A DNA stretch of 44,880 bases from positions 1 to 44,880 of the forward strand of contig CAZRYJ010000003.1 in assembly GCA_964604245.1 (NCBI GenBank), read 5' to 3'. The stretch's first letter is position 1. Each line of letters opens with the position of its first letter. Of this stretch, positions 3,705 to 23,780 are shown in pieces. This DNA comes from an uncultured bacterium. Its GTDB lineage: Bacteria; Hydrothermota; UBA3072. Below the pieces are notes generated by a model. The model was not told the origin of the DNA and ran no database searches. It saw nothing but the letters and a program-made list of their open reading frames with translations. Position numbers and translations under genes: made by a program.

Positions 3705-3716
3705 TTAAAACACAAT

Positions 3717-3767
3717 AAAAAAATGGAGCGGGGTGGGCTCTGTGTTCTCCGTGTCTCTGTGGCAAAA
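3717..3767 (-). repeat. CACAGAG-word element with CCCACCCC-T7 tail
   Basis: Reverse complement: ttttgCCACagagaCACggagaaCACagagcCCACCCCgctccattttttt. Confidence 0.8.
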
Positions 3768-3776
3768 CAAATTTTT

Positions 3777-3838
3777 GAACTTTGATTTGTCTTTTTTTAT
3801 TTTGATATTTGATTTTTACATTTTGGTAGCTTTGATAC
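3777..3838. repeat. TTTGAT word cluster
   Basis: gaacTTTGATttg..., tTTTGATaTTTGATtt..., gcTTTGATac. A relative lies at 22261. Confidence 0.5.
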
Positions 3839-3900
3839 ACCAATATAAGATTAGCCTCTTTAGCAAATAGATAGTATCAACTAAATAATACCAAAGAATT

Positions 3901-4467
3901 CTATTTTACAACAATATTACTATCTTCGTTTTGTTCGGCGGATCGCAAGGCTTCTTCCGCTTTAGCCAAAAATTCCTCAAGGATAGGATAGCCTTCCGCA
4001 ATTTCAACCCCACCCTGGCACAGGGTAATATCCATATCTCCTTTATCCGTAGTTACAGGTGAATTCGAAACGGCTTCTTGGAGCCTCTCGGCAATTTTTT
4101 GTACTGCAGATTTGTCAGCCTCCGGCAATAAAAGAACTAACCTATCATCATCGTAACGACCAAAATAATCAAGATCTCTAATTTTTAATTTACAACGATT
4201 TGTCACTTCAGAGAATACCTGATCAGCAATTTCCGCATTATGTTCAGACTTAATTAGACCAAAATTCTTAATAGTAATTAAAATTACCGATAGAGGTCTC
4301 TGGAAACGTTGAGAACGTATAAATTCACACTCGGCAAGATCAAGAAAATATTCCCTGTTATACAAACCTGTCAATTCATCAGTGGTTTCTTCTAAACCTG
4401 AAAGTCTCTTCCTCAACTCTTTCAATTCATTTATTAGTTGACCTTTTGACTGGTCCTTATAAGTCAT
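3901..4467 (-). CDS. coiled-coil protein with strongly degenerate GGDEF (diguanylate-cyclase-like) domain
   Basis: The N-terminal ~30 aa are a heptad-like helix, followed by the DELTGLYNREYF start typical of GGDEF domains. The DxD metal site reads ITIKNF, and the GGDEF position reads DDDRL. An RxxD (RDLD) sits 5 residues upstream of that position. The RBS AGGAGG precedes the ATG. Confidence 0.75.
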   Translation of the reverse strand: MTYKDQSKGQLINELKELRKRLSGLEETTDELTGLYNREYFLDLAECEFIRSQRFQRPLSVILITIKNFGLIKSEHNAEIADQVFSEVTNRCKLKIRDLDYFGRYDDDRLVLLLPEADKSAVQKIAERLQEAVSNSPVTTDKGDMDITLCQGGVEIAEGYPILEEFLAKAEEALRSAEQNEDSNIVVK

Positions 4468-4524
4468 ATATTCCTCCTAAATATCTTTAAACAACTAAAA
4501 AAAGATTTTATTTCCGTTTTCTTA

Positions 4525-4552
4525 ATTATAAAAAATTTTTTCACTGAGTCAA
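4525..4552 (-). promoter_or_regulatory. sigma70-type promoter for the 3901..4467 gene
   Basis: On the minus strand: TTGACT (4552..4547), a 16-nt spacer, then TATAAT (4530..4525). Confidence 0.6.
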
Positions 4553-4590
4553 GTGTTTAATTTGAATACATAAAAAAAACTTAAACAATA

Positions 4591-4619
4591 TCCCGCTATC
4601 GGCTATCCGCTTCCCGCTA
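4591..4619 (+). repeat. CCGCT(A) word triplet
   Basis: tCCCGCTAtcgGCTAtCCGCTtCCCGCTA. Confidence 0.55.
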
Positions 4620-4689
4620 ATTAAACACATCCCCATAAAAAATCTTGAAAAATAAATTTGGAGAGTTGTTACAAAGCGGTTTGCGGTAT

Positions 4690-5271
4690 TCAGTCACTGG
4701 TTGTTTCAACGCGATTACGTCCTTGATTCTTTGCTAAAAATAAAGCCTCTTCTGCTTTTTCAAGCAAAGAGGAAATATCTGGCATTTGGTCAGTTTTATC
4801 CGCAATTCCGATACTCACAGTCACATTAATTTTATCCCTTTGAGTGGAAATAGGTCTAGAAGAAATAATTTTGAGTAAACGGTCGGCAGCTTTCTTTGCA
4901 TCCGCTTTTTTAATTTCCAAAAGTAAAAGAATAAACTTTCCACCCTCATAACAACCAATAAAATCAAGATCTCGAATGTTATCTCTGCACCTTTTAGAGA
5001 CTTCCACTAAAATCTGATCGCCACACTTTTCATTATAAACCGTGTTCACTTCTTTCAGATGGTCAATATCGAGTAAAACGACCGACAAGGGTCTCTTAAA
5101 TCTACGGGCACGCTCAAATTCCCGTTCGGCGAAATTTAGGAAATATATCCAGTTATATAATCCTGTAAGCTCGTCTATTGGATTTTTTAGTTCTTTAACT
5201 CTTTCAAGAAGTTTCTCTACTTCCGTGAGAAGTTCTTCTTTTGTTTTTTTATTATTTTCTTTTTTTGACAT
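4690..5271 (-). CDS. coiled-coil protein with degenerate GGDEF domain (GGDEF replaced by EGGKF)
   Basis: The N-terminal helix is followed by DELTGLYNWIYF, LLDIDHLKEVN (metal site kept) and YNEKCGD (in place of YGHxxGD). It continues with RDLDFIGCYEGGKFILLL (RxxD kept, GGDEF lost) and SIGIA...AEEALFLAKNQGRNRV. Confidence 0.8.
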   Translation of the reverse strand: MSKKENNKKTKEELLTEVEKLLERVKELKNPIDELTGLYNWIYFLNFAEREFERARRFKRPLSVVLLDIDHLKEVNTVYNEKCGDQILVEVSKRCRDNIRDLDFIGCYEGGKFILLLLEIKKADAKKAADRLLKIISSRPISTQRDKINVTVSIGIADKTDQMPDISSLLEKAEEALFLAKNQGRNRVETTSD

Positions 5272-15818: not shown

Positions 15819-17399
15819 TCAGGAATCCAGTATTTTTTGCGCTTCTTCTTTATCACATTTCATTATATATTGAATACCGCTTATCTCACTCGCTTCATGT
15901 GTTAAAGCAGCAATATCGTCCCGGGTAATATATTCCAGTGCAAATTTACGACAGCCCGCCATAATCTGCCTCAATCCTTGATTTAATCTCTCCATATAGG
16001 TATATAGACCCATCGCGCCTGTTGGAAGATTTTCAAAGTCGCTTCCGAGTTTTCTCTTAAGTGCCGGTGCTGTAACAAATATCTCTTCAGGCGTATTTCC
16101 AAATCTTTCAATGTATACAGGAACCATTCCCTCATTGATTGTCTTCCCGATTGTCTTGCCCACCATGGCTGCTGCAAGCGGAGCCCTCGCCATACCTATT
16201 AATTTAAAGTGTGGCGCACCAAGTGCCAATCCTTTCAACATCTGGTCCTCAAATGCGAATCCACCTGCTATAGCAATATCCGGAACATACTCCCCTCTCC
16301 TGGCAAGTCTATCAACATATTTGTAGAGTAAAGAATGCAATTCGACCTCCGGTACACCCCATTCGTTCATCATTCTCCAGGGACTCATACCTGTTCCGCC
16401 ACCGGCTGCATCTACGGTTAGCAAATCAATCTCTGCCTTTGATGAAAACTTCAATGCTCTTGCCAGATCTACAGGTCTGTATGCGCCTGTCTTGAGGAAA
16501 ACGTGTTTTGCGCCTAAACTTTTCAGTTCCTTTACCCTCTTCAAAAAACTTTCCTCAGTAACCATACCTACCCTGGAATGCCGTTCGAACTCTTTAAAAT
16601 TGCCTTTTTCAAATGCCTTGATAATATCCGGTTTTGTTGGATCAGGTAGGACAATGTACCCTCTTTTTTTCAGGAGCTGAGCTCTTTTCAAATCCTTGAT
16701 TTTAACCTCACCACCTATGTTTTTTGCTCCCTGCCCCCATTTCAGTTCAACAGCGTCAACATCCAGTTCCGAAATAGCATATTCATGAACCCCTAAATTT
16801 GTGTCCTCTACATTCGCCTGGACAATTATCGCACCATATCCGTCCTGCTGCCATTTTTTGTAGAGTTTTACTCTCCACTCAAGATCCGTTGAATGCTTTA
16901 CTTTTCCATCAACAATTTCAGATTCAGGGTCCATTCCGCACACATTTTCACCGATAGTTAAGGGTATACCTGTTAACGCCGCACCTATTGCCAGTCCCTC
17001 CCAGTTGTTTTTCGCTATGGCTGTCGAACCTAAACCGGGTATGATTACAGGCATCTTAAGTTTTATATCCTTATTTTTTCCAATATTCGTTTCTATATTT
17101 ACATTTGAGAATAACGCTTCATCGCTGTCAGCCTTTATTCCTTCAGCACCTACGATTCCTCCGAGTATTGTGAAATGAGACAGGTCAACAGGATAAATTT
17201 TTTCGTTTGCGGAAGTTATTATTCCAAAAGGCTGGGGATAAATCACCTCATGCCCTCGATAGGCGGATTTACCTATTTCGCACATCCCTATACATCCGTC
17301 TACACAGGTTGCGCACATTCCGCTCATTGAATTTATTGCCCCTTCAGTTCTATTTTTTGTCAGCGTTGCCGCTGTTGCGTTAATCTTTGTTAAAGACAT
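15819..17399 (-). CDS. glutamate synthase-related FMN subunit (GltB domain-2 type) with N-terminal Cys cluster
   Basis: 526 aa. N-terminal CATCVDGCIGMCEIGKS (CxxCxxxCxxxC), a TIM-barrel FMN region with VDAAGGGTGMSP and IAGGF. There is no glutamine amidotransferase domain and no GXGXG domain. Overlaps the upstream gene by 10 nt. Confidence 0.8.
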   Translation of the reverse strand: MSLTKINATAATLTKNRTEGAINSMSGMCATCVDGCIGMCEIGKSAYRGHEVIYPQPFGIITSANEKIYPVDLSHFTILGGIVGAEGIKADSDEALFSNVNIETNIGKNKDIKLKMPVIIPGLGSTAIAKNNWEGLAIGAALTGIPLTIGENVCGMDPESEIVDGKVKHSTDLEWRVKLYKKWQQDGYGAIIVQANVEDTNLGVHEYAISELDVDAVELKWGQGAKNIGGEVKIKDLKRAQLLKKRGYIVLPDPTKPDIIKAFEKGNFKEFERHSRVGMVTEESFLKRVKELKSLGAKHVFLKTGAYRPVDLARALKFSSKAEIDLLTVDAAGGGTGMSPWRMMNEWGVPEVELHSLLYKYVDRLARRGEYVPDIAIAGGFAFEDQMLKGLALGAPHFKLIGMARAPLAAAMVGKTIGKTINEGMVPVYIERFGNTPEEIFVTAPALKRKLGSDFENLPTGAMGLYTYMERLNQGLRQIMAGCRKFALEYITRDDIAALTHEASEISGIQYIMKCDKEEAQKILDS

Positions 17400-18106
17400 T
17401 TTTTTCCTCCATTATTATTCGTATTTTTATTTTTTTCTGATTCTGTTAACAAACATGCAGCACATGGGTCCATGTAACAGTGAACATCTTCGTACACATC
17501 AAGACATGGATATTCAATATTAAGACATCCTCCACACACAGCACCCGGTGGTTCGGGACCCTGACATCTAAGCTGACATGTCGGGCAAATATACATGCAC
17601 GCACCGCATGTTCTGCATACATCAGATTTAATATCAAATGGCGTTGTTATTTTCCTTTCTTTGCCTCTGTTTACAAAACCTATTGCCCGTGCATCCATCT
17701 GTTCTTCACACATTCTTGTACAAAGACCACAAAGTATGCAGTCATCGCTTTTTAACTTGAATCTTACACTGGTCACATTGTATTTGGATGCCAAATCCTG
17801 AATGGTTTTTGAAGTATGACATCTTGCGAGCATAAGTTCTATTATTAATTTTCTGTAATTTATAACCTTTTTAGAATGTGTTCTAACTACCAATCCTTCT
17901 TCTACCGGGTATGTACAGGATGAAACGAATTTTGCGTTTTTTCCTTCACCAATTTCCACTATACAAAGTCTGCAGGCGCCATAATCCGAGAGACCGTCAT
18001 GATGACATAATGTCGGGATTTCTATCCCATAAAACTCAGCAGCTTCCAATATTGTCCAACCCTCTTCCACCTGGACTTCCAGTCCATTAAGTTTTATCTT
18101 TACCAC
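17390..18106 (-). CDS. 2Fe-2S plus 2x[4Fe-4S] ferredoxin-domain protein (NuoG/HydA N-terminal-like, no catalytic domain) with Cys-rich tail
   Basis: MVKIKLNGLEVQVEEGWTILEAA..IPTLCHH...ACRLC...SSC (plant-type 2Fe-2S). CILCGLCTRMC and CRTCGACMYICP are ferredoxin-type clusters. The last ~50 aa carry 9 further Cys. Confidence 0.75.
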   Translation of the reverse strand: MVKIKLNGLEVQVEEGWTILEAAEFYGIEIPTLCHHDGLSDYGACRLCIVEIGEGKNAKFVSSCTYPVEEGLVVRTHSKKVINYRKLIIELMLARCHTSKTIQDLASKYNVTSVRFKLKSDDCILCGLCTRMCEEQMDARAIGFVNRGKERKITTPFDIKSDVCRTCGACMYICPTCQLRCQGPEPPGAVCGGCLNIEYPCLDVYEDVHCYMDPCAACLLTESEKNKNTNNNGGKKCL

Positions 18107-21100
18107 TTTCTACCTCTTCTTTAAACTGCTTTTTCCCATCCTCAGTTTCTAAATCGCACCTAACACAGCGCCTTGCCTCTCTAATAGCAGCTTCTTCGGT
18201 AAAACCTAACTCTACCTCATCGAAATTGTTAACCCTTTTACTCACTGATAAATATGGCATTGCTTGTCTTTCTGCTTCCATAACCTCTTCTTCTGTCAGT
18301 TCAACTGGCTCTACATACATTGATGGTCTAATTATTTTGTATTCTCTTACCAACGGCTTACCCTGCAGATACTTATCGATCATTTCTGCAGCTATTTTAC
18401 CGGACGACATAGCTTCTATCACTGTGTTGGGGCCCTTTACAACATCTCCTCCGGCAAAAACACCGGCTACACTTGTAACGAATGTCTCATGATTTACTAC
18501 TATAGTGTTGTGCTTACTTATTTCAAATTTGTTTCTGTCAAGGAAAGAAACATCCGGTTGTTCACCTATAGCTACTACTATCAGAGAGTCGATTTCAACA
18601 ACAAACTCTGAACCCTTAATCGGAATCGGTCTTTTTCTGCCGGATTCATCCATTTCCCCCAATTTCATCTTAATGCATTCAACCCCGGTAATTTTTCTAT
18701 TTTTAGTCAAAATCTTTACAGGTGCTGTCAGTAACTGCATCTCGATTTTTTCTTCGATAGCTGCATTTACCTCTTCCTTGATCGCAGGCATCTCATTTAT
18801 TGTTCTCCTGTATATTATAAAGACCTTTTCACAACCCTTTATACGGTTAGCGGCCCTGGCAGCATCAACAGCAGCATTACCTCCACCAATGACACCAACT
18901 CTTTTACCTATTTTAACCTCTTTTCCAAGGTTTATATCCTTCAAAAAATCCATAGCATGCAGAACACCAGCAGCATCTTCATTCGGGATACCTAACTTCA
19001 AAGATTTGTGTGCGCCAGTTGCAATGAATATGGCGTCGTACTTGTCTCGAAGTTCATCAAAAAGAATATCCTTTCCTACAGTAACATTGGTTTTGATTTC
19101 CACTCCTGCATTTCTGATATTCTCAATATCTTTATTTAAAATCTTCTTAGGAAGCCTGTAATCCGGTATGTATGCATACAACGCGCCACCAACGACAGGC
19201 AAAGATTCGAAAATAGTAACGGTATATCCTTTCCGAGCAAGATAATAACTCGCTGTAAGCCCGGCGGGTCCGGAGCCAATAACAGCAACTTTTTCTTTCT
19301 TTGGCTTTTCAGTTTTACAAGAAGGTTTAAATCCCTCTCTTAAAGCGTAATCTGTAACAAATCTTTTAAGTCCTCTGATAGATATAGGGTCGCCGAATTT
19401 ACCCGATTGGCATTTGAATTCGCATGGATGATGACACACCCTGGCACAAACAGACGGCAGGGGGTTATCTTTCCAGATTATATCGAATGCCTCTTTGAAT
19501 CTTCCTCTGGCAATCAGTGAAATGTAAACAGGAACTTCTGTATCTATAGGACAAGTATGCTGACAGGGCGAAGAGATGATTTCTTTACATACCGCGGCGG
19601 GACAATTTTTGTATTTAATATGCTGCTCATATTCATCTTTGAAGTATCTGATAGTCGAAAGCAAAGGATTCGGAGCGGTCTGCCCAAGCCCACACATGGA
19701 CGTATCTTTGACAAGTTCACCTAATTCTTTCAATAGTTCGATGTCTTCTTCCTTTCCTGTTCCCTCAATGATACCGGTAAGTATTTCAAGCAATCTCTCA
19801 ATACCTTCTCTGCAGGTAAGACATTTGCCGCAGGATTCCTCCTGAAGAAACTCAAGAAAGTATTTCGCGGTATCAACCATGCAAGTATCCTCATCCATCA
19901 CAACCATACCACCGGAACCCATTATAGACCCAAGTGCCTTTAAACTCTCATAATCAACAGGCGTATCTAAAAATTCTTCAGGTATACATCCTCCTGACGG
20001 TCCTCCCGTTTGGACTGCTTTAAACTTCTTACTCTGAGGTATACCCCCTCCGATATCGTACACCATCTCCCTCAACGTTATACCCATAGGAACTTCAACT
20101 AAACCCGTATTGTTTATCTTTCCAACCAACGAGAATATTTTTGTACCTTTGCTTCCTTCTGTTCCAATTTCCGAGAACCACTCTGCGCCGTTGTTAATAA
20201 TCAGCGGTACGTTCGCCCATGTTTCAACATTATTTATATTCGTCGGCTTTCTCCATATTCCTTTCTGAGCAGGAAACGGTGGTCTCTGTCTTGGCTCACC
20301 CTTCTTTCCCTCTATTGATGCAATAAGCGCCGTCTCTTCACCACAAACGAACGCACCAGCTCCTGTAATCACCTCTATATCAAAATTAAAATCTGTACCA
20401 AGTATCCCTTTGCCAAGCAATCCGTATTCTTCCATCTGGGTTATAGCTATTTTAACATTTTTTACGGCAAGAGGATACTCATGCCTGACATATATGAACC
20501 CTTCACTCGAACCAATAGCATATGCTCCAATCAGCATTCCTTCTAAAACAGAATGAGGATTTCCTTCCAGAAGGCTTCTATTCATATAGGCACCGGGGTC
20601 TCCTTCATCGGCATTACAAACAATGTATTTTACGTCACCCTTAGCCTTTCTGCAAAACTCCCATTTGATACCTGCCGGGAAACCAGCTCCACCCCTGCCA
20701 CGTAAACCCGATTTTTTCACCTCATATATTATCTCTTCAGGTTTCATTGTTTTGAGAGTTTTGCAGAATGCCGAATATCCACCAATTCCAATATAGTCCT
20801 CTATCTTATTGGGATCAATCAATACATTACTGGCTAAATGCGTTCTGACCTGTTTCTGGTAAAAGGGGATATCTTTTTCATATTTAATATTTTTACCGGT
20901 TTTTGGATCAACATACAGCAAACGATCAATAACTTTTTTATTGATAATAGCTTCAGATACAATTTCCTCTGCATCTTCCGGTTTAACACTTTGATAGAAT
21001 ATATTTTCAGGATTAACAATAACTATAGGCTCTACCTGACAAAAACCGTGACAGCCTGTTATCCTTGTATTCACCTTTTTGTCCAAATTGTGTTTTTTTA

Positions 21101-21263
21101 GCGATTCCCTTAATGCATCAATAACAGCTAAAGATCCTTTAGCTTGACCACACGTACCAGATGACACTATTAGACACAACTCATTAGATTCATTTTTTTT
21201 AGATTCACGAATTTCACCACACAATGATTCAAATTCACCTATATCCGAAAATCTCATATTCAT
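18087..21263 (-). CDS. NuoF-like (NADH/FMN/4Fe-4S) :: GltD/NfnB-like (FAD/NADPH) fusion flavoprotein with N-terminal thioredoxin-like 2Fe-2S domain
   Basis: 1058 aa. SSGTCGQAKG...GCHGFCQ (thioredoxin-like FeS), GLRGRGGAGFPAGIKW (NuoF FMN site) and ESCGKCLTCREG (N3-type cluster). NPLPSVCARVCHHPCEFKC is a GltD N-terminal FeS motif. VAVIGSGPAGLTASYYLARKG and VGVIGGGNAAVDAARAA are two Rossmann folds, followed by FAGGDVV. Confidence 0.85.
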   Translation of the reverse strand: MNMRFSDIGEFESLCGEIRESKKNESNELCLIVSSGTCGQAKGSLAVIDALRESLKKHNLDKKVNTRITGCHGFCQVEPIVIVNPENIFYQSVKPEDAEEIVSEAIINKKVIDRLLYVDPKTGKNIKYEKDIPFYQKQVRTHLASNVLIDPNKIEDYIGIGGYSAFCKTLKTMKPEEIIYEVKKSGLRGRGGAGFPAGIKWEFCRKAKGDVKYIVCNADEGDPGAYMNRSLLEGNPHSVLEGMLIGAYAIGSSEGFIYVRHEYPLAVKNVKIAITQMEEYGLLGKGILGTDFNFDIEVITGAGAFVCGEETALIASIEGKKGEPRQRPPFPAQKGIWRKPTNINNVETWANVPLIINNGAEWFSEIGTEGSKGTKIFSLVGKINNTGLVEVPMGITLREMVYDIGGGIPQSKKFKAVQTGGPSGGCIPEEFLDTPVDYESLKALGSIMGSGGMVVMDEDTCMVDTAKYFLEFLQEESCGKCLTCREGIERLLEILTGIIEGTGKEEDIELLKELGELVKDTSMCGLGQTAPNPLLSTIRYFKDEYEQHIKYKNCPAAVCKEIISSPCQHTCPIDTEVPVYISLIARGRFKEAFDIIWKDNPLPSVCARVCHHPCEFKCQSGKFGDPISIRGLKRFVTDYALREGFKPSCKTEKPKKEKVAVIGSGPAGLTASYYLARKGYTVTIFESLPVVGGALYAYIPDYRLPKKILNKDIENIRNAGVEIKTNVTVGKDILFDELRDKYDAIFIATGAHKSLKLGIPNEDAAGVLHAMDFLKDINLGKEVKIGKRVGVIGGGNAAVDAARAANRIKGCEKVFIIYRRTINEMPAIKEEVNAAIEEKIEMQLLTAPVKILTKNRKITGVECIKMKLGEMDESGRKRPIPIKGSEFVVEIDSLIVVAIGEQPDVSFLDRNKFEISKHNTIVVNHETFVTSVAGVFAGGDVVKGPNTVIEAMSSGKIAAEMIDKYLQGKPLVREYKIIRPSMYVEPVELTEEEVMEAERQAMPYLSVSKRVNNFDEVELGFTEEAAIREARRCVRCDLETEDGKKQFKEEVESGKDKT

Positions 21264-21736
21264 TATGCATTCTCACTCTTTTTGTATTTATTTAAAATTG
21301 TACCTACCATTCTTTGTGTTACATGAGAATAATAAGTATTACCTATGACTACAACTGGACCCAATGCACAGCATCCAAGACATCTAACAGTTTCTAAGGT
21401 GAATAGTTTGTCTCCTGTCGTTTCGCCAACATCAATGTCCAGTCTTCTTTTAACTTCATCAACAATCCTTTGCCCCCCTCTCACATGGCAGGCTGTGCCA
21501 ACACATACATTTATAATATGCTTTCCTCTTGGCTTCAAACTGAAAACTTTGTAAAACGTGGCTGCGGAATAGACCTGTATAAGCGGAATATTTAGTCTAT
21601 TTGCTACGGTTACAAGAGCTTCTTTTGGAAGATAATTGTACTCCGATTGAATATCTAACAGTATGGAAATCAATGAATCGTCCTCATTATTCCATTTATC
21701 CAAAATAGATTCAACAGATATTAATGATTCCATCAC
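21263..21736 (-). CDS. NuoE/HydC-like thioredoxin-fold 2Fe-2S subunit
   Basis: 157 aa. CVGTACHVRGG...CLGCCALGP four-Cys pattern of the 24-kDa subunit family. The ATG at 21733 is the likely start (the track uses the GTG at 21736). The stop overlaps the next ATG as TAATG. Confidence 0.85.
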   Translation of the reverse strand: MMESLISVESILDKWNNEDDSLISILLDIQSEYNYLPKEALVTVANRLNIPLIQVYSAATFYKVFSLKPRGKHIINVCVGTACHVRGGQRIVDEVKRRLDIDVGETTGDKLFTLETVRCLGCCALGPVVVIGNTYYSHVTQRMVGTILNKYKKSENA

Positions 21737-21792
21737 AACGATCTCTCATTTAATCGAGATAAAGTGATTCTAAAAGGATTCAACTCTTCCAT
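21733..21792 (-). CDS. candidate 19-codon upstream ORF derived from the gdhA 5' end (MEELNPFRITLSRLNERSL)
   Basis: ATG at 21792 behind GAAGGAGG plus a 7-nt spacer. The first 7 codons are identical in protein to the gdhA N-terminus (MEELNPF). The TGA stop (21735..21733) overlaps the nuoE-like ATG as TGATG. The nuoE-like gene has no RBS of its own. Confidence 0.4.
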   Translation of the reverse strand: MEELNPFRITLSRLNERSL

Positions 21793-21861
21793 TAATTCGA
21801 CCTCCTTCGAAGGACAAATTCGCACTACTCTCCAATTCGACTATTTATAAATTCAAGTTCG

Positions 21862-21889
21862 AATATATACACGTTATAAATAATGTCAA
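21862..21889 (-). promoter_or_regulatory. sigma70-type promoter of the nuoE-like operon (paralogous to the gdhA promoter)
   Basis: On the minus strand: TTGACA (21889..21884), a 16-nt spacer, then TATATT (21867..21862). The hexamers and spacing match the gdhA promoter. Confidence 0.65.
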
Positions 21890-21909
21890 GGCTAAAATTC
21901 GTTTTTTTA

Positions 21910-21923
21910 TGAATTTTTATTCA
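21910..21923. promoter_or_regulatory. conserved palindrome TGAAT-N4-ATTCA upstream of -35 (candidate regulator site)
   Basis: tgaatttttattca is identical to 23722..23735. It lies about 20 nt upstream of -35 in both paralogous promoter regions. Confidence 0.45.
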
Positions 21924-21981
21924 ATTCTATATGAATAATTCAAGAAATAAAGATTTTAAACTATCCAGAAAAAAAATTATA

Positions 21982-22297: not shown

Positions 22298-22347
22298 ATA
22301 AGAAATAAAAACAGGCTAACGGACGTTAGCCTGTTTTTATTTCTTAT
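22298..22347. terminator. gdhA intrinsic terminator: 50-nt perfect palindrome, potentially bidirectional
   Basis: ataagaaataaaaacaggctaacg-ga-cgttagcctgtttttatttcttat. It has a GC-containing core stem with A-run/T-run flanks on both strands and starts 14 nt after the gdhA stop. Confidence 0.8.
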
Positions 22348-22361
22348 GGTAATTAAGCCTA

Positions 22362-23606
22362 CTACACCCAGCCTCTTATTTTCATCGCATCAACGACTCT
22401 CTTAACCGCAACCATATAAGCGGCAAGCCGGTTGTGTACTTTCTCATTAGCTCTCATATCATGAACAGCGTGAAAAGCTTTAGTCATATGCTCATCGAGT
22501 TCATTGTAAACCCTCTCAATAGGCCAGTAATAACCTGCTTCATTCTGAACCCATTCAAAATAAGAAACCGTTACACCACCAGCATTTGCAAGAAAATCAG
22601 GTATTACATAGCAATCATTATTATGAAGAATTTTATCCGCCTCAGGAGTTGTCGGTCCATTCGCGAGCTCTACGCTTATCTTAGCTTTAATCTTACTTGC
22701 ATTTTTTTCGGTAATAACATTTTCCAATGCTGCCGGGATTAGCACATCTACATCGAGCTCAAGTAATTCTTCATTACTAATTTTATCTTCGTCCAATTTA
22801 ACAACACTGCCTTTTTTTAATTTAGTGCTTATGCATTTCTTTGCTTTTAAACCGCTCTTATTCAATATTGCACCTTTTGAATCAGATATGGCGATTACTT
22901 TAGAACCAAACATTTCTTCTATTAGAGAATGAGCAAACTGTCCCGCATTACCGTATCCTTGAATTGCAACTGTCGCTTTAGAAAGATCTATGTCGTTTAT
23001 ATACGCGGCTTCCCTCAAAACAAACATTCCGCCTCTTGCTGTAGCATCTCCCCTGCCGAGTGAACCGCCGACATTAATCAACTTTCCGGTTATCACTCCG
23101 GGAGTGTTATAACCGGTTATATTTGAATATTCATCCATCATCCATGCCATAATCTGCGGCGTAGTGTAAACATCCGGAGCGGGAATGTCTTTCTTTGGGC
23201 CTATAAACCTGCCGAGAGCTCTGATATAACCCCTGGCAAGACGCTCTTTCTCACCCTCGGACATTTCTTTTGGATTACAGATAACACCACCCTTACTTCC
23301 ACCATAAGGGATATCAACTACAGAAGTCTTCCATGTCATCCAGGCCGCGAGAGCCCTGACTGTATCTATAGTTTCTTCGGGATGCCACCGTATACCGCCT
23401 TTTGTAGGTCCACGAGCGTCATTGTACTGGACCCTGAACCCCTGAAATACTTTTGTGGTACCGTCATCTATTTTAACCGGTATAGTAACATGAAGTTCAC
23501 GCATCGGCCACCTTAGCATCTCGTGAGTACCCGAATCGAGCTTAAGAAGCTTTGCAGCTTCATCTAACTGAGCCTGCGCGATTTTAAAAGGATTTAACTC
23601 TTCCAT
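22362..23606 (-). CDS. gdhA: glutamate dehydrogenase (Glu/Leu/Phe/Val dehydrogenase family)
   Basis: PYGGSKGGV catalytic Lys motif and the GYGNAGQ Rossmann motif. I place the start at the ATG at 23606 (MEELNPFK), 7 nt after GAAGGAGG. The track start (TTG 23624) lies inside that RBS. Confidence 0.95.
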
Positions 23607-23673
23607 CAAATTAACCTCCTTCAAAAGCTATTTTTTTACCTACTCCCCAATTCAATCCCTTACAATTAAATCG

Positions 23674-23701
23674 AATATACATAAGTTACAAATATTGTCA
23701 A
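23674..23701 (-). promoter_or_regulatory. sigma70-type gdhA promoter
   Basis: On the minus strand: TTGACA (23701..23696), a 16-nt spacer, then TATATT (23679..23674). Confidence 0.65.
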
Positions 23702-23721
23702 GGGTAAAAATTCATTATTTG

Positions 23722-23735
23722 TGAATTTTTATTCA
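23722..23735. promoter_or_regulatory. conserved palindrome TGAAT-N4-ATTCA upstream of the gdhA -35
   Basis: tgaatttttattca is identical to 21910..21923. Confidence 0.45.
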
Positions 23736-23780
23736 ATTTTTTCCGAATAATTTAAATCATAGCGCGGCAAAGCCGCTATT

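Follow-up and report, generated by a model that had tools for sequence, protein, structure and literature searches.

A four-gene operon of an uncultured Hydrothermota bacterium that probably encodes a Bfu-type flavin enzyme with a glutamate synthase-like fourth subunit

A conserved four-gene operon

The subject of this report is a cluster of four overlapping genes in a 44,880-nucleotide stretch of DNA from an uncultured bacterium (GTDB lineage Hydrothermota, UBA3072; contig CAZRYJ010000003.1 of the assembly GCA_964604245.1, positions 1 to 44,880), hereafter referred to as the window. The genes occupy positions 21736..15819 of the minus strand and encode, in the order of transcription, a NuoE-like protein, a long fusion protein combining NuoF-like and GltD-like parts, a small iron-sulfur protein of 238 amino acids (aa), and a 526-aa protein resembling the flavin mononucleotide (FMN)-binding domain of the glutamate synthase large subunit GltB. 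For reasons explained below we call these proteins BfuC, BfuB::GltD, the BfuA-like subunit and the GltB-like subunit, respectively (table 1). Translations of the open reading frames (ORFs) of the window confirm overlaps of, in order, 1, 20 and 10 nt between the successive genes, and thus the translational coupling proposed in an initial annotation made from the sequence alone; independent gene calls on identical JGI metagenome contigs place the boundaries of all four genes at the same positions. The motifs highlighted in that annotation (GLRGRGGAGFP, ESCGKCLTCREG, GGTGMSP and CATCVDGCIGMC) are all located in the window translations, and every domain it named was recovered with Pfam and NCBIfam. 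Twenty other ORFs of the window were scanned, and none of them encodes a glutaminase, a GXGXG protein or a 2-oxoacid oxidoreductase; outside the operon and gdhA, the window consists of housekeeping genes.

Table 1. Positions of the operon, its protein domains and the adjoining regulatory elements in the window.
Feature	Position	Strand	Basis
bfuC, NuoE-like subunit, 157 aa, thioredoxin-like [2Fe-2S] (C1 cluster)	21263..21736	-	Pfam 2Fe-2S_thioredx
bfuB::gltD fusion, 1058 aa: thioredoxin-like N-terminus, NuoF FMN/NADH core, GltD-type module	18087..21263	-	Pfam, NCBIfam
BfuB N-terminal thioredoxin-like domain	20952..21173	-	Pfam 2Fe-2S_thioredx, 24.3 bits
NuoF core, aa 151-549: FMN/NADH site, B1 (C478/C481/C484/C524), B2 Zn (C461/H548/C554/C559)	19617..20813	-	TIGR01959
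GltD/NfnL-type module, aa 556-1040: two-[4Fe-4S] domain, FAD and NADPH Rossmann folds	18144..19598	-	Fer4_20, Pyr_redox_2
bfuA-like iron-sulfur subunit, 238 aa: A1 [2Fe-2S], A2/A4 [4Fe-4S], Cys-rich tail	17390..18106	-	Pfam, WorA alignment
Cys-rich tail of the BfuA-like subunit, aa 175-218: C177, C181, C191, C194, C201, C210, C215, C218	17453..17584	-	homologue alignment
GltB-synthase-domain-like FMN TIM-barrel subunit, 526 aa, with N-terminal CxxCxxxCxxxC	15819..17399	-	PF01645, AF2 model
Cys motif C29-x2-C32-x3-C36-x3-C40 of the GltB-like subunit, putative [4Fe-4S]	17280..17315	-	homologue alignment
Operon control region, copy of the gdhA promoter/leader, with ribosome-binding site	21765..21935	-	alignment with gdhA leader
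Palindrome AATTGAATAAAAATTCA, 17 nt	21926..21910	-	sequence
Sigma70-type near-consensus promoter of the operon, TTGACA-16-TATATT	21889..21862	-	sequence
19-codon upstream ORF MEELNPFRITLSRLNERSL (MEELNPF...), from the gdhA 5' end; its TGA overlaps the bfuC GTG start	21733..21792	-	sequence, leader alignment
gdhA intrinsic terminator, CAGGCTAACG..CGTTAGCCTG then TTTTTATTT	22300..22335	-	sequence; weak Rfam hairpin matches all here
gdhA (glutamate dehydrogenase), own transcription unit	22362..23606	-	ELFV_dehydrog, ELFV_dehydrog_N (Pfam); GdhA_Arch, 602 bits (NCBIfam)
gdhA promoter	23701..23674	-	sequence

The window proteins were mapped onto 83 non-redundant loci, the denominators of the neighbourhood counts given below being the loci with enough upstream DNA. 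The gene for the 238-aa protein lies directly upstream of the GltB-like gene in all 76 informative loci; it is itself preceded by a NuoF-type gene in 63 of 63, and this in turn by a NuoE-type gene in 57 of 57. The four-gene arrangement is far from chance, its order being the same throughout the 57-76 informative loci. A neighbourhood survey had been named beforehand as a check that could speak against grouping the four genes, and in it the GltB-like gene was accompanied by the three-gene module throughout.

Homologues of the 526-aa protein with 76-94% identity occur in WOR-3 (94%), Theionarchaea, Thermoplasmatota, Omnitrophota, Aminicenantes and Acidobacteriota. A scan restricted to one genome per species found GltB-like relatives in at least 596 species, and the best 80 of these, 69-89% identical, belong to more than 20 phyla, with Promethearchaeota, Methanophagales, Methanoperedens, Zixibacteria, Planctomycetota, Dehalococcoidia, Bacteroidota, Firmicutes and Deltaproteobacteria among the groups represented. 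The lineages with the operon are anaerobes, both bacterial and archaeal, including Asgard archaea, anaerobic methanotrophic archaea (ANME), Thermoplasmatota, Aminicenantes, Zixibacteria, Planctomycetota and WOR-3. The GltB-like subunit, 69-94% identical across phyla of both domains of life, has the highest mean pairwise identity of the four proteins (72%, as against 68% for the NuoF core, 60% for the BfuA-like subunit and 49% for NuoE). Such conservation across two domains points to strong constraint on this protein and to frequent transfer of its gene.

Some variation in the make-up of the operon was also observed. Many operons, that of the window not being among them, have about 450 extra nucleotides between the NuoE and NuoF genes (e.g. 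positions 3715-4131 of the locus L005), encoding either a Cys-rich zinc-ribbon-like protein of about 138 aa or an extension of NuoE to 280-330 aa. Just upstream of nuoE, the locus L059 (6102-6443) and 13 other loci carry a small Cys-rich ORF (about 113 aa) in which CxxC...FCE(Q/E)F motifs recur and which no Pfam family matches. It lies downstream of a sigma54-type promoter, and the operon seems to begin with it in Planctomycetota, Deltaproteobacteria and lineages related to them. On a short, 5.3-kb contig from Zixibacteria (L014), two glutamate dehydrogenase (GDH) genes directly precede the BfuA-like and GltB-like genes, this being the only locus without a NuoF-type gene at that place. In a locus from Theionarchaea (L001, 1-2675) a second, divergent cluster of NuoE, NuoF and molybdopterin (formate dehydrogenase-like) genes occurs immediately upstream of the operon, so that two NuoEF-type modules adjoin each other.

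The first three proteins as a Bfu-type core

The core of the enzymes of the BfuABC family, i.e. HydABC-type electron-bifurcating enzymes, is defined by the presence of FMN, the B1 cluster, the B2 zinc site, the C-terminal ferredoxin-like B3/B4 domain, the N-terminal thioredoxin-like B5 domain, and the C1 cluster. The NuoE-like protein of the window is matched over its full length by Pfam 2Fe-2S_thioredx (171 bits), and its top matches among solved structures (7t2r_C, 9mqx_C and 8a6t_C) are the C subunits of bifurcating enzymes, which come ahead of NuoE of complex I. The fusion protein contains, according to Pfam, a weak N-terminal 2Fe-2S_thioredx domain followed by Complex1_51K (157 bits), NADH_4Fe-4S (110 bits), Fer4_20 and Pyr_redox_2, and its NuoF core is recognized by the NCBIfam model TIGR01959 (nuoF_fam) with 499 bits. 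Residues 32-564 of the fusion find their best PDB match in the HydB subunit of a NiFe enzyme (7t2r_B, 772 bits), followed by FeFe-HydBs, NfnB (9n5u_B), WorB (9mqx_B) and Stn (8oh5_B), with NuoF of complex I scoring about 400 bits.

The ligands of both B1 and B2 are invariant in 41 fused and 27 unfused homologues. The conservation of H548 is of particular relevance here, as the B2 histidine is kept in the B subunits of Bfu enzymes and absent from their non-bifurcating homologues (PMC12018979). The N-terminal domain, at the B5 position, falls just short of the Pfam cut-off (24.3 versus 24.8 bits) and is matched by 2Fe-2S ferredoxin models of NCBIfam; two of its ligands (C71 and C75) are invariant in 68 homologues and the other two (C30 and C38) are variable. 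We note that neither the window nor the recurrent neighbours of the operon include any hydrogenase gene.

The best named NCBIfam matches of the first and third subunits are HoxE and HoxU, and they might suggest that NuoE, NuoF and the short NuoG form a diaphorase wire like that of HoxEFU in the bidirectional NiFe hydrogenase. The complex would then be a non-bifurcating, NAD(P)H-dependent and ammonia-using glutamate synthase or reductase, in which electrons from NADH, and from NADPH via GltD, flow downhill to the FMN of the GltB-like subunit with no ferredoxin and no energy coupling involved. Both scores are, however, well below the NCBIfam cut-offs (145.7 versus 224 for HoxE and 127.8 versus 333 for HoxU), and the HoxEFU identity as such was rejected. 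Moreover, every subunit scores best against proven bifurcating enzymes and the hallmarks of Bfu enzymes are retained. For these reasons and others given further below we consider a plain reductase unlikely.

The assignment of the first three proteins to a Bfu-type core follows from their best matches being bifurcating enzymes, from the retained B2 histidine, and from the presence of B3/B4 in unfused orthologues. On the evidence of their sequences they would thus constitute such a core, in keeping with the NuoEF-type bifurcating module that had been proposed for them. The likeness to the Sporomusa-type Nfn (Stn) transhydrogenase, also suggested at that stage, did not hold: in Stn the GltD-like module sits in the large BfuA subunit, and here it is found at the C-terminus of BfuB, making the core of the window distinct from Stn.

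A facultative GltD-type module

The GltD-type part of the fusion stands in for the B3/B4 domain, immediately behind the B2 motif. Its best matches among solved structures (residues 565-1037) are the GltD-like modules of 9bov_A, 9n5u_A and 8oh5_C, and the motifs for binding flavin adenine dinucleotide (FAD) and NADPH are intact and conserved (GxGPAGL, GGGNxAxDAAR...YRRTxxEMPA and GVFAGGD). The iron-sulfur domain of the module is circularly permuted, with an invariant C-terminal EARRC1033xRC1036 (EARRC1033VRC1036 in the window); when this tail is joined to the start of the domain, the result is a single continuous match to residues 28-137 of E. coli GltD (E = 9e-19). Modules of the Stn type have the same permuted layout: aligned to the fusion, they can be followed up to residue 1037, compared with residue 967 for NfnL.

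The ferredoxin-like B3/B4 domain (2 x CX2CX2CX3CP) is required for bifurcation in NfnABC, as shown by mutagenesis, and ferredoxin docks beside it. In the window and in 41 of 63 operons (65%) it is replaced by the Fer4_20 domain of GltD; it is present in the remaining 22 (35%), in which the NuoF-type protein is unfused, comprises about 617 aa and ends in two CX2CX2CX3C motifs (B3/B4). The two states are interleaved in crude neighbour-joining trees of the NuoF core or the GltB-like protein, with about 15 changes between them and a few partial ORFs misclassified, and a single origin of the GltD fusion was rejected on the basis of these same crude trees. The absence of the module from 22 of the 63 operons and its interleaved occurrence in the trees, crude as they are, mark it as a facultative add-on outside the conserved core. 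The NuoF::GltD fusion described initially does exist in the window, then, but it cannot serve as a defining part of the system. In Bfu enzymes C1 normally shuttles low-potential electrons to B3/B4, so the simplest assumption is that NADP(H) replaces the low-potential partner in the fused enzymes.

The BfuA-like subunit and its cysteine-rich tail

The 238-aa protein consists of the Pfam domains Fer2_4 and a 4Fe-4S dicluster and has no catalytic domain. Its best solved relative is WorA (9mqx_A, 247 aa; E = 1e-37), the short Type-2 BfuA of a tungsten aldehyde oxidoreductase, which contains the clusters A1, A2 and A4 without the His-ligated A3 and wires the Bfu core to a separate catalytic subunit (PMC12318220). 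An alignment of the two proteins likewise reveals no motif for the His-ligated A3 cluster in the window protein, in which the twelve ligand cysteines of the clusters show little or no variation (77-80 of 78-80 homologues). The tail with nine cysteines reported initially was recovered after the second ferredoxin motif, and eight of the nine are essentially invariant, each of them being kept in 76-80 of 80 homologues. No Pfam family matches this tail. We suppose that it holds one or two further clusters bridging to the fourth subunit.

The GltB-like subunit

The 526-aa protein is matched by PF01645 (Glu_synthase) with 56.8 bits (cut-off 20.4), the match covering only residues 279-400 or so, and by no NCBIfam model. 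Its structure as predicted by AlphaFold2 (AF2; pLDDT 85.4, pTM 0.87) is an FMN-type TIM barrel. The N-terminus, disordered and of low pLDDT in this model, which was built without a cofactor, has no Pfam match and contains the only invariant cysteines of the protein (C29, C32, C36 and C40, all present in 84 of 84 homologues). Of 1.84 billion cluster representatives, about 1,060 match the protein at E <= 0.001, and canonical GltB is absent among them; a phmmer search against solved structures found nothing.

The relationship to GltB becomes apparent at the level of motifs, with hhalign returning three collinear blocks shared with the FMN domain of E. coli GltB. In the first, DVDAVELKWGQGAKNIGG is aligned with NADVIQIKVAQGAKPGEG of E. 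coli; the second comprises GGGTGMSP...AGGF..ED..K, and the third is the C-terminal helix. The sequence ELKWGQGAK-x-IGGE is kept, and alignments to 1ea0 and 1llw equate its residues Q223 and K226, invariant in 84 of 84 homologues, with Q969 and K972 of the ferredoxin-dependent glutamate synthase of Synechocystis. R246, found in 82 of 84 homologues in a collinear A-x-x-L-x-x-R-G, is a candidate counterpart of R992 of the same enzyme (the ARLR arginine of GltB). Q969, K972, Q978 and R992 of Synechocystis are, as we take it, residues of the synthase site that bind 2-oxoglutarate, a role that is supported by the numbering falling on a conserved Lys, Gln and Arg. The collinear likeness of these motifs (QGAK, GGTG and the C-terminal helix), and nothing beyond the motif level, argues for kinship with the synthase site of GltB.

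Other identities were considered. An isopentenyl diphosphate isomerase of type 2 (IDI-2) or an alpha-hydroxy-acid oxidase was rejected, the motifs not fitting: PF01070 (FMN_dh) does not match the window protein, and the position of what we take to be the catalytic His-x-x-Arg strand of alpha-hydroxy-acid oxidases is occupied by the GGGTGMSP motif. As the initial annotation had it, the protein is devoid of glutaminase and GXGXG domains, and these were encountered neither in the scanned ORFs of the window nor as recurrent neighbours in the 83 loci. Furthermore, canonical gltB was not detected by tblastn, either in the window or in related loci amounting to 1.2 Mb, a search that covered the loci rather than whole genomes. 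All this characterizes the GltB-like subunit as a distinct clade of the PF01645 superfamily, and not a GltB, that appears to have kept a part of the synthase site and to have a cluster-binding N-terminus of its own. The label 'GltB domain 2' originally given to it is justified by the PF01645 match and the collinear motifs and is overstated in that pairwise and profile searches barely reach GltB.

A second GltB-like paralogue, 50-59% identical and without a Bfu module of its own, is encoded a few kilobases upstream of the operon in Methanoperedens, Dethiobacter and a metagenome-assembled genome of Desulfatiglandales (loci L021, 5015-6604; L048, 4129-5712; L054, 2997-4643). The paralogue of Dethiobacter is flanked by two genes for IclR-type regulators and that of Methanoperedens by genes of riboflavin/FMN biosynthesis (DHBP synthase and CTP-dependent riboflavin kinase).

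The tail of the BfuA-like subunit and the Cys4 motif of the GltB-like subunit, both invariant and specific to this family, are the probable interface elements of the two proteins. They bear on the possibility that the first three genes encode a self-sufficient NADH/NADPH/ferredoxin transhydrogenase akin to Stn and Nfn, with the GltB-like protein being a separate enzyme that merely shares the operon. The fusion does hold both an NADH site (FMN) and an NADPH site (the FAD of GltD), its GltD module resembles those of StnC and NfnA including the permuted iron-sulfur motif, and modules of the NfnL type can bind ferredoxin at their distal cluster, as in NfnSL. However, the 22 of 63 operons without GltD yet with the BfuA-like and GltB-like genes cannot specify transhydrogenases and would lack a third substrate, and in the known Stn and NfnABC enzymes the GltD module is part of BfuA, with B3/B4 both present and required. 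The invariable linkage (76 of 76 loci) and translational coupling of the GltB-like gene, together with the co-conservation of the tail and the Cys4 motif, both peculiar to this system, likewise disagree with two independent enzymes, and we regard the transhydrogenase as very improbable. A single enzyme with the GltB-like protein as its catalytic subunit explains these observations better, as the unfused complexes would otherwise have no third substrate.

Association with glutamate dehydrogenase

The adjacency of gdhA, pointed out in the initial annotation, turned out to have a regulatory side. A stretch of about 170 nt that spans a palindrome, the promoter, the 5' untranslated region, the ribosome-binding site (RBS) and codons one to nine of gdhA has a second copy, about 80% identical, before bfuC (positions 21733-21935 and 23580-23747, minus strand). 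The exact 17-nt palindrome AATTGAATAAAAATTCA occurs in the window only at these two leaders and is a candidate operator for a regulator. The ORF list produced by a program starts gdhA at a TTG codon (23606-23624); its real start is likely the ATG at 23606 (MEELNPF...), since the conserved RBS GAAGGAGG precedes it and the leader is duplicated accordingly.

The 'shared leader' noted earlier is thus a duplicated promoter and leader and not a single transcript: a terminator, consisting of a hairpin and a run of T, and a second promoter intervene between gdhA and the operon, and their co-transcription was rejected. The duplication of the gdhA promoter and leader before bfuC nevertheless argues for co-regulation of GDH and the four-gene enzyme in this organism, which would in turn place the latter in the metabolism of glutamate and ammonia. 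No sigma54 promoter was found near the operon in the window, and the operon leader yielded no Rfam riboswitch or structured leader, its fold being no better than those of shuffled sequences.

The link to GDH extends beyond the window. A GDH gene is present in 17 of the 83 loci (about 20%), and in 9-12 of the 44 loci with long flanks on both sides. It often adjoins the operon directly, and two to four copies occur in some loci (L014, L027, L029 and L063); given one to three GDH genes per genome, the rough chance expectation would be about 1%. In two further proteins (P0228 and P0274) a GltB-like domain is fused to a module of ferredoxin and FrhB (F420H2 dehydrogenase), and their genes directly follow two GDH genes. 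Since GDH is associated with two unrelated input modules, the association seems to follow the catalytic domain rather than the module that supplies electrons to it. GlnA adjoins four of the 83 loci, and NtrC-family sigma54 activators adjoin 37; sigma54-type promoters precede the operon in 13 of the 27 loci with an adjacent activator versus one of the 29 without.

The proposed enzyme and its alternatives

On this basis, the proposal of an ammonia-dependent or reverse-running glutamate synthase-like enzyme fed by a bifurcating module is the best available reading of the operon. The four genes would encode one cytoplasmic flavin/iron-sulfur enzyme of the BfuABC family, with BfuC and BfuB providing the NAD(H)-binding FMN-B1-C1 core. 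Electrons would pass from FMN/B1 through A1, A2 and A4 to the cluster or clusters of the tail, and via the Cys4 cluster to the FMN of the fourth subunit, which would be the site of a third reaction, 2-oxoglutarate + NH3 + 2e- <=> glutamate. With no glutaminase present, the source of nitrogen would be free ammonia.

In the unfused, presumably ancestral form, the overall reaction may be written as Glu + H2O + 2 NAD+ + Fd(red, 2e-) <=> 2-OG + NH4+ + 2 NADH + Fd(ox), where Fd stands for ferredoxin and 2-OG for 2-oxoglutarate. The potentials of the glutamate couple (about -0.13 V) and of ferredoxin (about -0.45 to -0.5 V) straddle that of NAD(H) (-0.32 V), and the coupling would be analogous to that of lactate dehydrogenase or butyryl-CoA dehydrogenase with their electron-transfer flavoproteins (Ldh/Etf and Bcd/Etf). 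In the fused form NADP(H) would stand in place of the low-potential partner, with ferredoxin docking on the clusters of GltD being conceivable, as in NfnL. Anaerobes that ferment peptides obtain reduced ferredoxin from their 2-oxoacid oxidoreductases at a ratio of 1:1, and such a coupling would remove the thermodynamic obstacle that limits their oxidation of glutamate.

The union of the four proteins in one complex, the path of electrons, the substrate, the direction and the bifurcation are all matters that we infer, and not with equal confidence. That the four genes specify one Bfu-type complex with the GltB-like protein as its third-substrate module is, in our view, likely. For the glutamate couple as the substrate the evidence stands close to an even balance, if not slightly below it, and the specific stoichiometry deserves less confidence than the couple itself. 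We regard as evenly poised the full reading of a four-gene BfuABC-family enzyme with a glutamate-couple fourth subunit and the coupling proposed here.

A number of observations weigh against this reading. The substrate is not fixed by the fold, as many FMN barrels are found at the same TM score: the model is equally close (TMq 0.44-0.48) to flavocytochrome b2, lactate and glycolate oxidases, IDI-2, glutamate synthase (1ofd, 1llw and 7mfm), and inosine monophosphate dehydrogenase. A family profile built from 21 sequences reaches the A. brasilense GltB 1ea0 (and also 2vdc) only at E = 0.1, behind spurious designed TIM barrels, with residues 315-408 of the GltB-like protein aligned to 1011-1099 of 1ea0, and the hhalign match to E. 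coli GltB has a probability of 64-77% over only about 84 residues. The 3Fe-4S site of GltB (Cx5Cx4C) is missing, the collinear segment (residues 411-464) having no Cys at all, and the position of Q978, the GGQ glutamine of glutamate synthase, is taken by an invariant Glu (E231). GDH is absent from about 75-80% of the neighbourhoods. A couple near -0.13 V needs no bifurcation, a plain NADH-driven reductase being thermodynamically sufficient, and the fused form of the window lacks B3/B4, so that this particular enzyme may work in a manner unlike canonical Bfu enzymes.

Several of these points would be accommodated by a Bfu-type complex whose FMN subunit acts on a different substrate, such as a 2-oxo or imino acid, a 2-hydroxy acid, or an unrelated compound with a C=C or C=N bond, the linkage to GDH then reflecting a shared pathway rather than a shared substrate. 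Besides the ranking of other flavoenzymes as high as glutamate synthase in the fold search, the replacement of Q978 and the absence of GDH from most neighbourhoods, one may cite in its favour that the likeness to GltB is confined to the FMN-binding elements plus one motif, and that the regulators encoded nearby are diverse (NtrC-type, IclR and GAF-ANTAR). It fits poorly with the GltB-type GGGTGMSP at what we assume to be the strand position of His-x-x-Arg and with the failure of FMN_dh to match. The QGAK motif is invariant, including the Lys that presumably binds 2-oxoglutarate, and the many invariant Arg, Lys, Glu and Asp residues suit a small polar dicarboxylate. Considering also that GDH accompanies two unrelated input modules, we hold a different substrate to be slightly less probable still than the plain reductase introduced above.

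As to that reductase, the presumed couple lies far above NAD(P)H, making coupling unnecessary on textbook thermodynamic grounds, and GltD is the natural electron donor to GltB in genuine glutamate synthase; the fused form, without the ferredoxin-binding B3/B4 and with an NADPH-FAD module like that of the glutamate synthase small subunit, could be viewed in the same light. On the other hand, 35% of the operons keep the B3/B4 ferredoxin domain and have no GltD, which would be hard to explain if ferredoxin had no role, and the NAD(P)H-linked reaction is already performed by GDH, often encoded next door. A coupled enzyme acting on the glutamate couple therefore seems to us the preferable reading.

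Comparison with known systems

In overall design the enzyme comes close to WorABCSL of Acetomicrobium mobile (9mqx; PMC12318220), which likewise combines a BfuBC core, WorB and WorC being among the top matches to BfuB and BfuC of the window, with a short BfuA of about 240 aa (A1/A2/A4 without A3) and a separate catalytic subunit. The partner in that case is, however, the tungstopterin WorSL nanowire, recruited by a zinc finger and a C-terminal helix of WorA, whereas the window system has an FMN TIM-barrel partner, an eight-cysteine BfuA tail without a known homologue, and GltD in place of B3/B4. The Stn/NfnABC enzymes of Sporomusa ovata, Caldicellulosiruptor and Thermococcus sibiricus (8oh5 and 9n5u; PMC10482914, PMC11829005, PMC12018979) share with it a BfuBC core, a GltD/NfnL-like module of the same subtype (permuted iron-sulfur motif, 400-418 bits), and NADH and NADPH sites in one enzyme. 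They differ in comprising three subunits, with NADP(H) as their sole third substrate, with the GltD module located in a large BfuA (963-1178 aa) and followed by a NuoG/Fdh-like domain, and with BfuB keeping B3/B4; in the window system BfuB carries the module at its C-terminal end, a third of the operons do without it, BfuA is a minimal 238-aa protein, and the fourth subunit is universal.

Glutamate synthase (GltB/GltD and its split, archaeal-type form) resembles the system in the FMN TIM barrel recognized by PF01645, with QGAK, GGTGxSP and the C-terminal helix in collinear positions, and in the GltD-type module with NADPH, FAD and 2x[4Fe-4S], part of the enzyme type of the window in 65% of cases. 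The window protein nevertheless has no glutaminase, central or GXGXG domain, carries the N-terminal Cys4 motif instead of Cx5Cx4C, and is accompanied by a GltD that is fused to the NuoF subunit rather than bound to GltB.

The FrhB::GltB-like fusions have a GltB-like domain that belongs to the subfamily of the fourth subunit. P0228 is 40% identical to this subunit over residues 26-406, possesses the N-terminal Cys4 motif and an electron-input module, and the genes of these fusions adjoin GDH genes, with no glutaminase or GXGXG genes; they differ in having FrhB and ferredoxin (for F420H2) in one 800-aa chain and in being rare, with only a handful of clusters. The putative FGltS(I), an enzyme never obtained in pure form, has the corresponding architecture. 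In the loci L090 (1-10887) and L091 the fusion gene has two GDH paralogues and a small ferredoxin before it and a LarA-type gene after it; the L090 contig also carries the pyrrolysine biosynthesis genes PylC and PylD.

The fusion of BfuB with GltD is as such not new, as HydB subunits with a GltA/GltD-like domain have been reported from archaeal hybrid [FeFe]/[NiFe] hydrogenase complexes (Cell 2024, PMC11216029). Compared by description, these too have a NuoF/HydB subunit with a domain like the glutamate synthase small subunit in a NuoE/NuoF-type bifurcating module, the partner being a hydrogenase. No description of an enzyme combining a Bfu/NuoEF module with a GltB-like protein was encountered in the searchable full-text literature, key Bfu papers included and the subscription literature being outside its scope. 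The survey that divided the Bfu family into 57 clades, 18 of them unassigned, does not contain the word 'glutamate'; it retrieved BfuB by a domain architecture requiring the C-terminal ferredoxin domain, and the fused forms would therefore escape it. We thus believe that the operon is best read, as far as its sequence allows, as encoding a Type-2-like Bfu enzyme with a new catalytic partner, mostly with a new BfuB::GltD architecture. To call it a very widespread, previously unrecognised bifurcating or confurcating glutamate:NAD+/ferredoxin (or NADP+) oxidoreductase goes further, and a claim of this breadth we consider doubtful.

Other features of the window

Two peculiarities of the window unrelated to the operon may be mentioned. 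Ribosomal protein L9 (14444-15229, minus strand) has a C-terminal extension of about 110 aa that is very acidic and rich in Glu, Ser and Lys (EEEESQEVKDESAEEEKSSEEKEES...), which is unusual for L9. A tandem pair of genes at 3901-5271 on the minus strand encodes small stand-alone GGDEF-domain proteins of 188 and 193 aa.

Implications

No class of flavin-based electron-bifurcating enzymes is less well understood than the Bfu family. Besides a few that are predicted, the third substrates known for it are H2, formate, NADP and aldehydes; if the proposed function is correct, an amino-acid couple would join them. The natural pair of variants with either B3/B4 or GltD at the same position of BfuB offers a ready comparison for the low-potential branch of these enzymes. 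Current annotation pipelines label the GltB-like protein 'FMN-binding glutamate synthase family protein' and the others as NADH dehydrogenase subunits, and metabolic reconstructions therefore probably misread the enzyme.

Provided that the glutamate/2-oxoglutarate couple is indeed linked to NADH and to ferredoxin or NADPH, the energetics of anaerobic amino-acid degradation and ammonia assimilation would have to be viewed differently. Ferredoxin reduced by 2-oxoacid oxidoreductases (or NADPH) would drive the oxidative deamination of glutamate to 2-oxoglutarate with NAD+, in itself very unfavourable, and in the reverse direction glutamate would be formed from free ammonia and low-potential reductant regenerated. 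Anaerobic peptide degraders, syntrophs and several archaeal lineages would thereby possess a new means of energy coupling at the central point where amino-acid catabolism and nitrogen assimilation meet.

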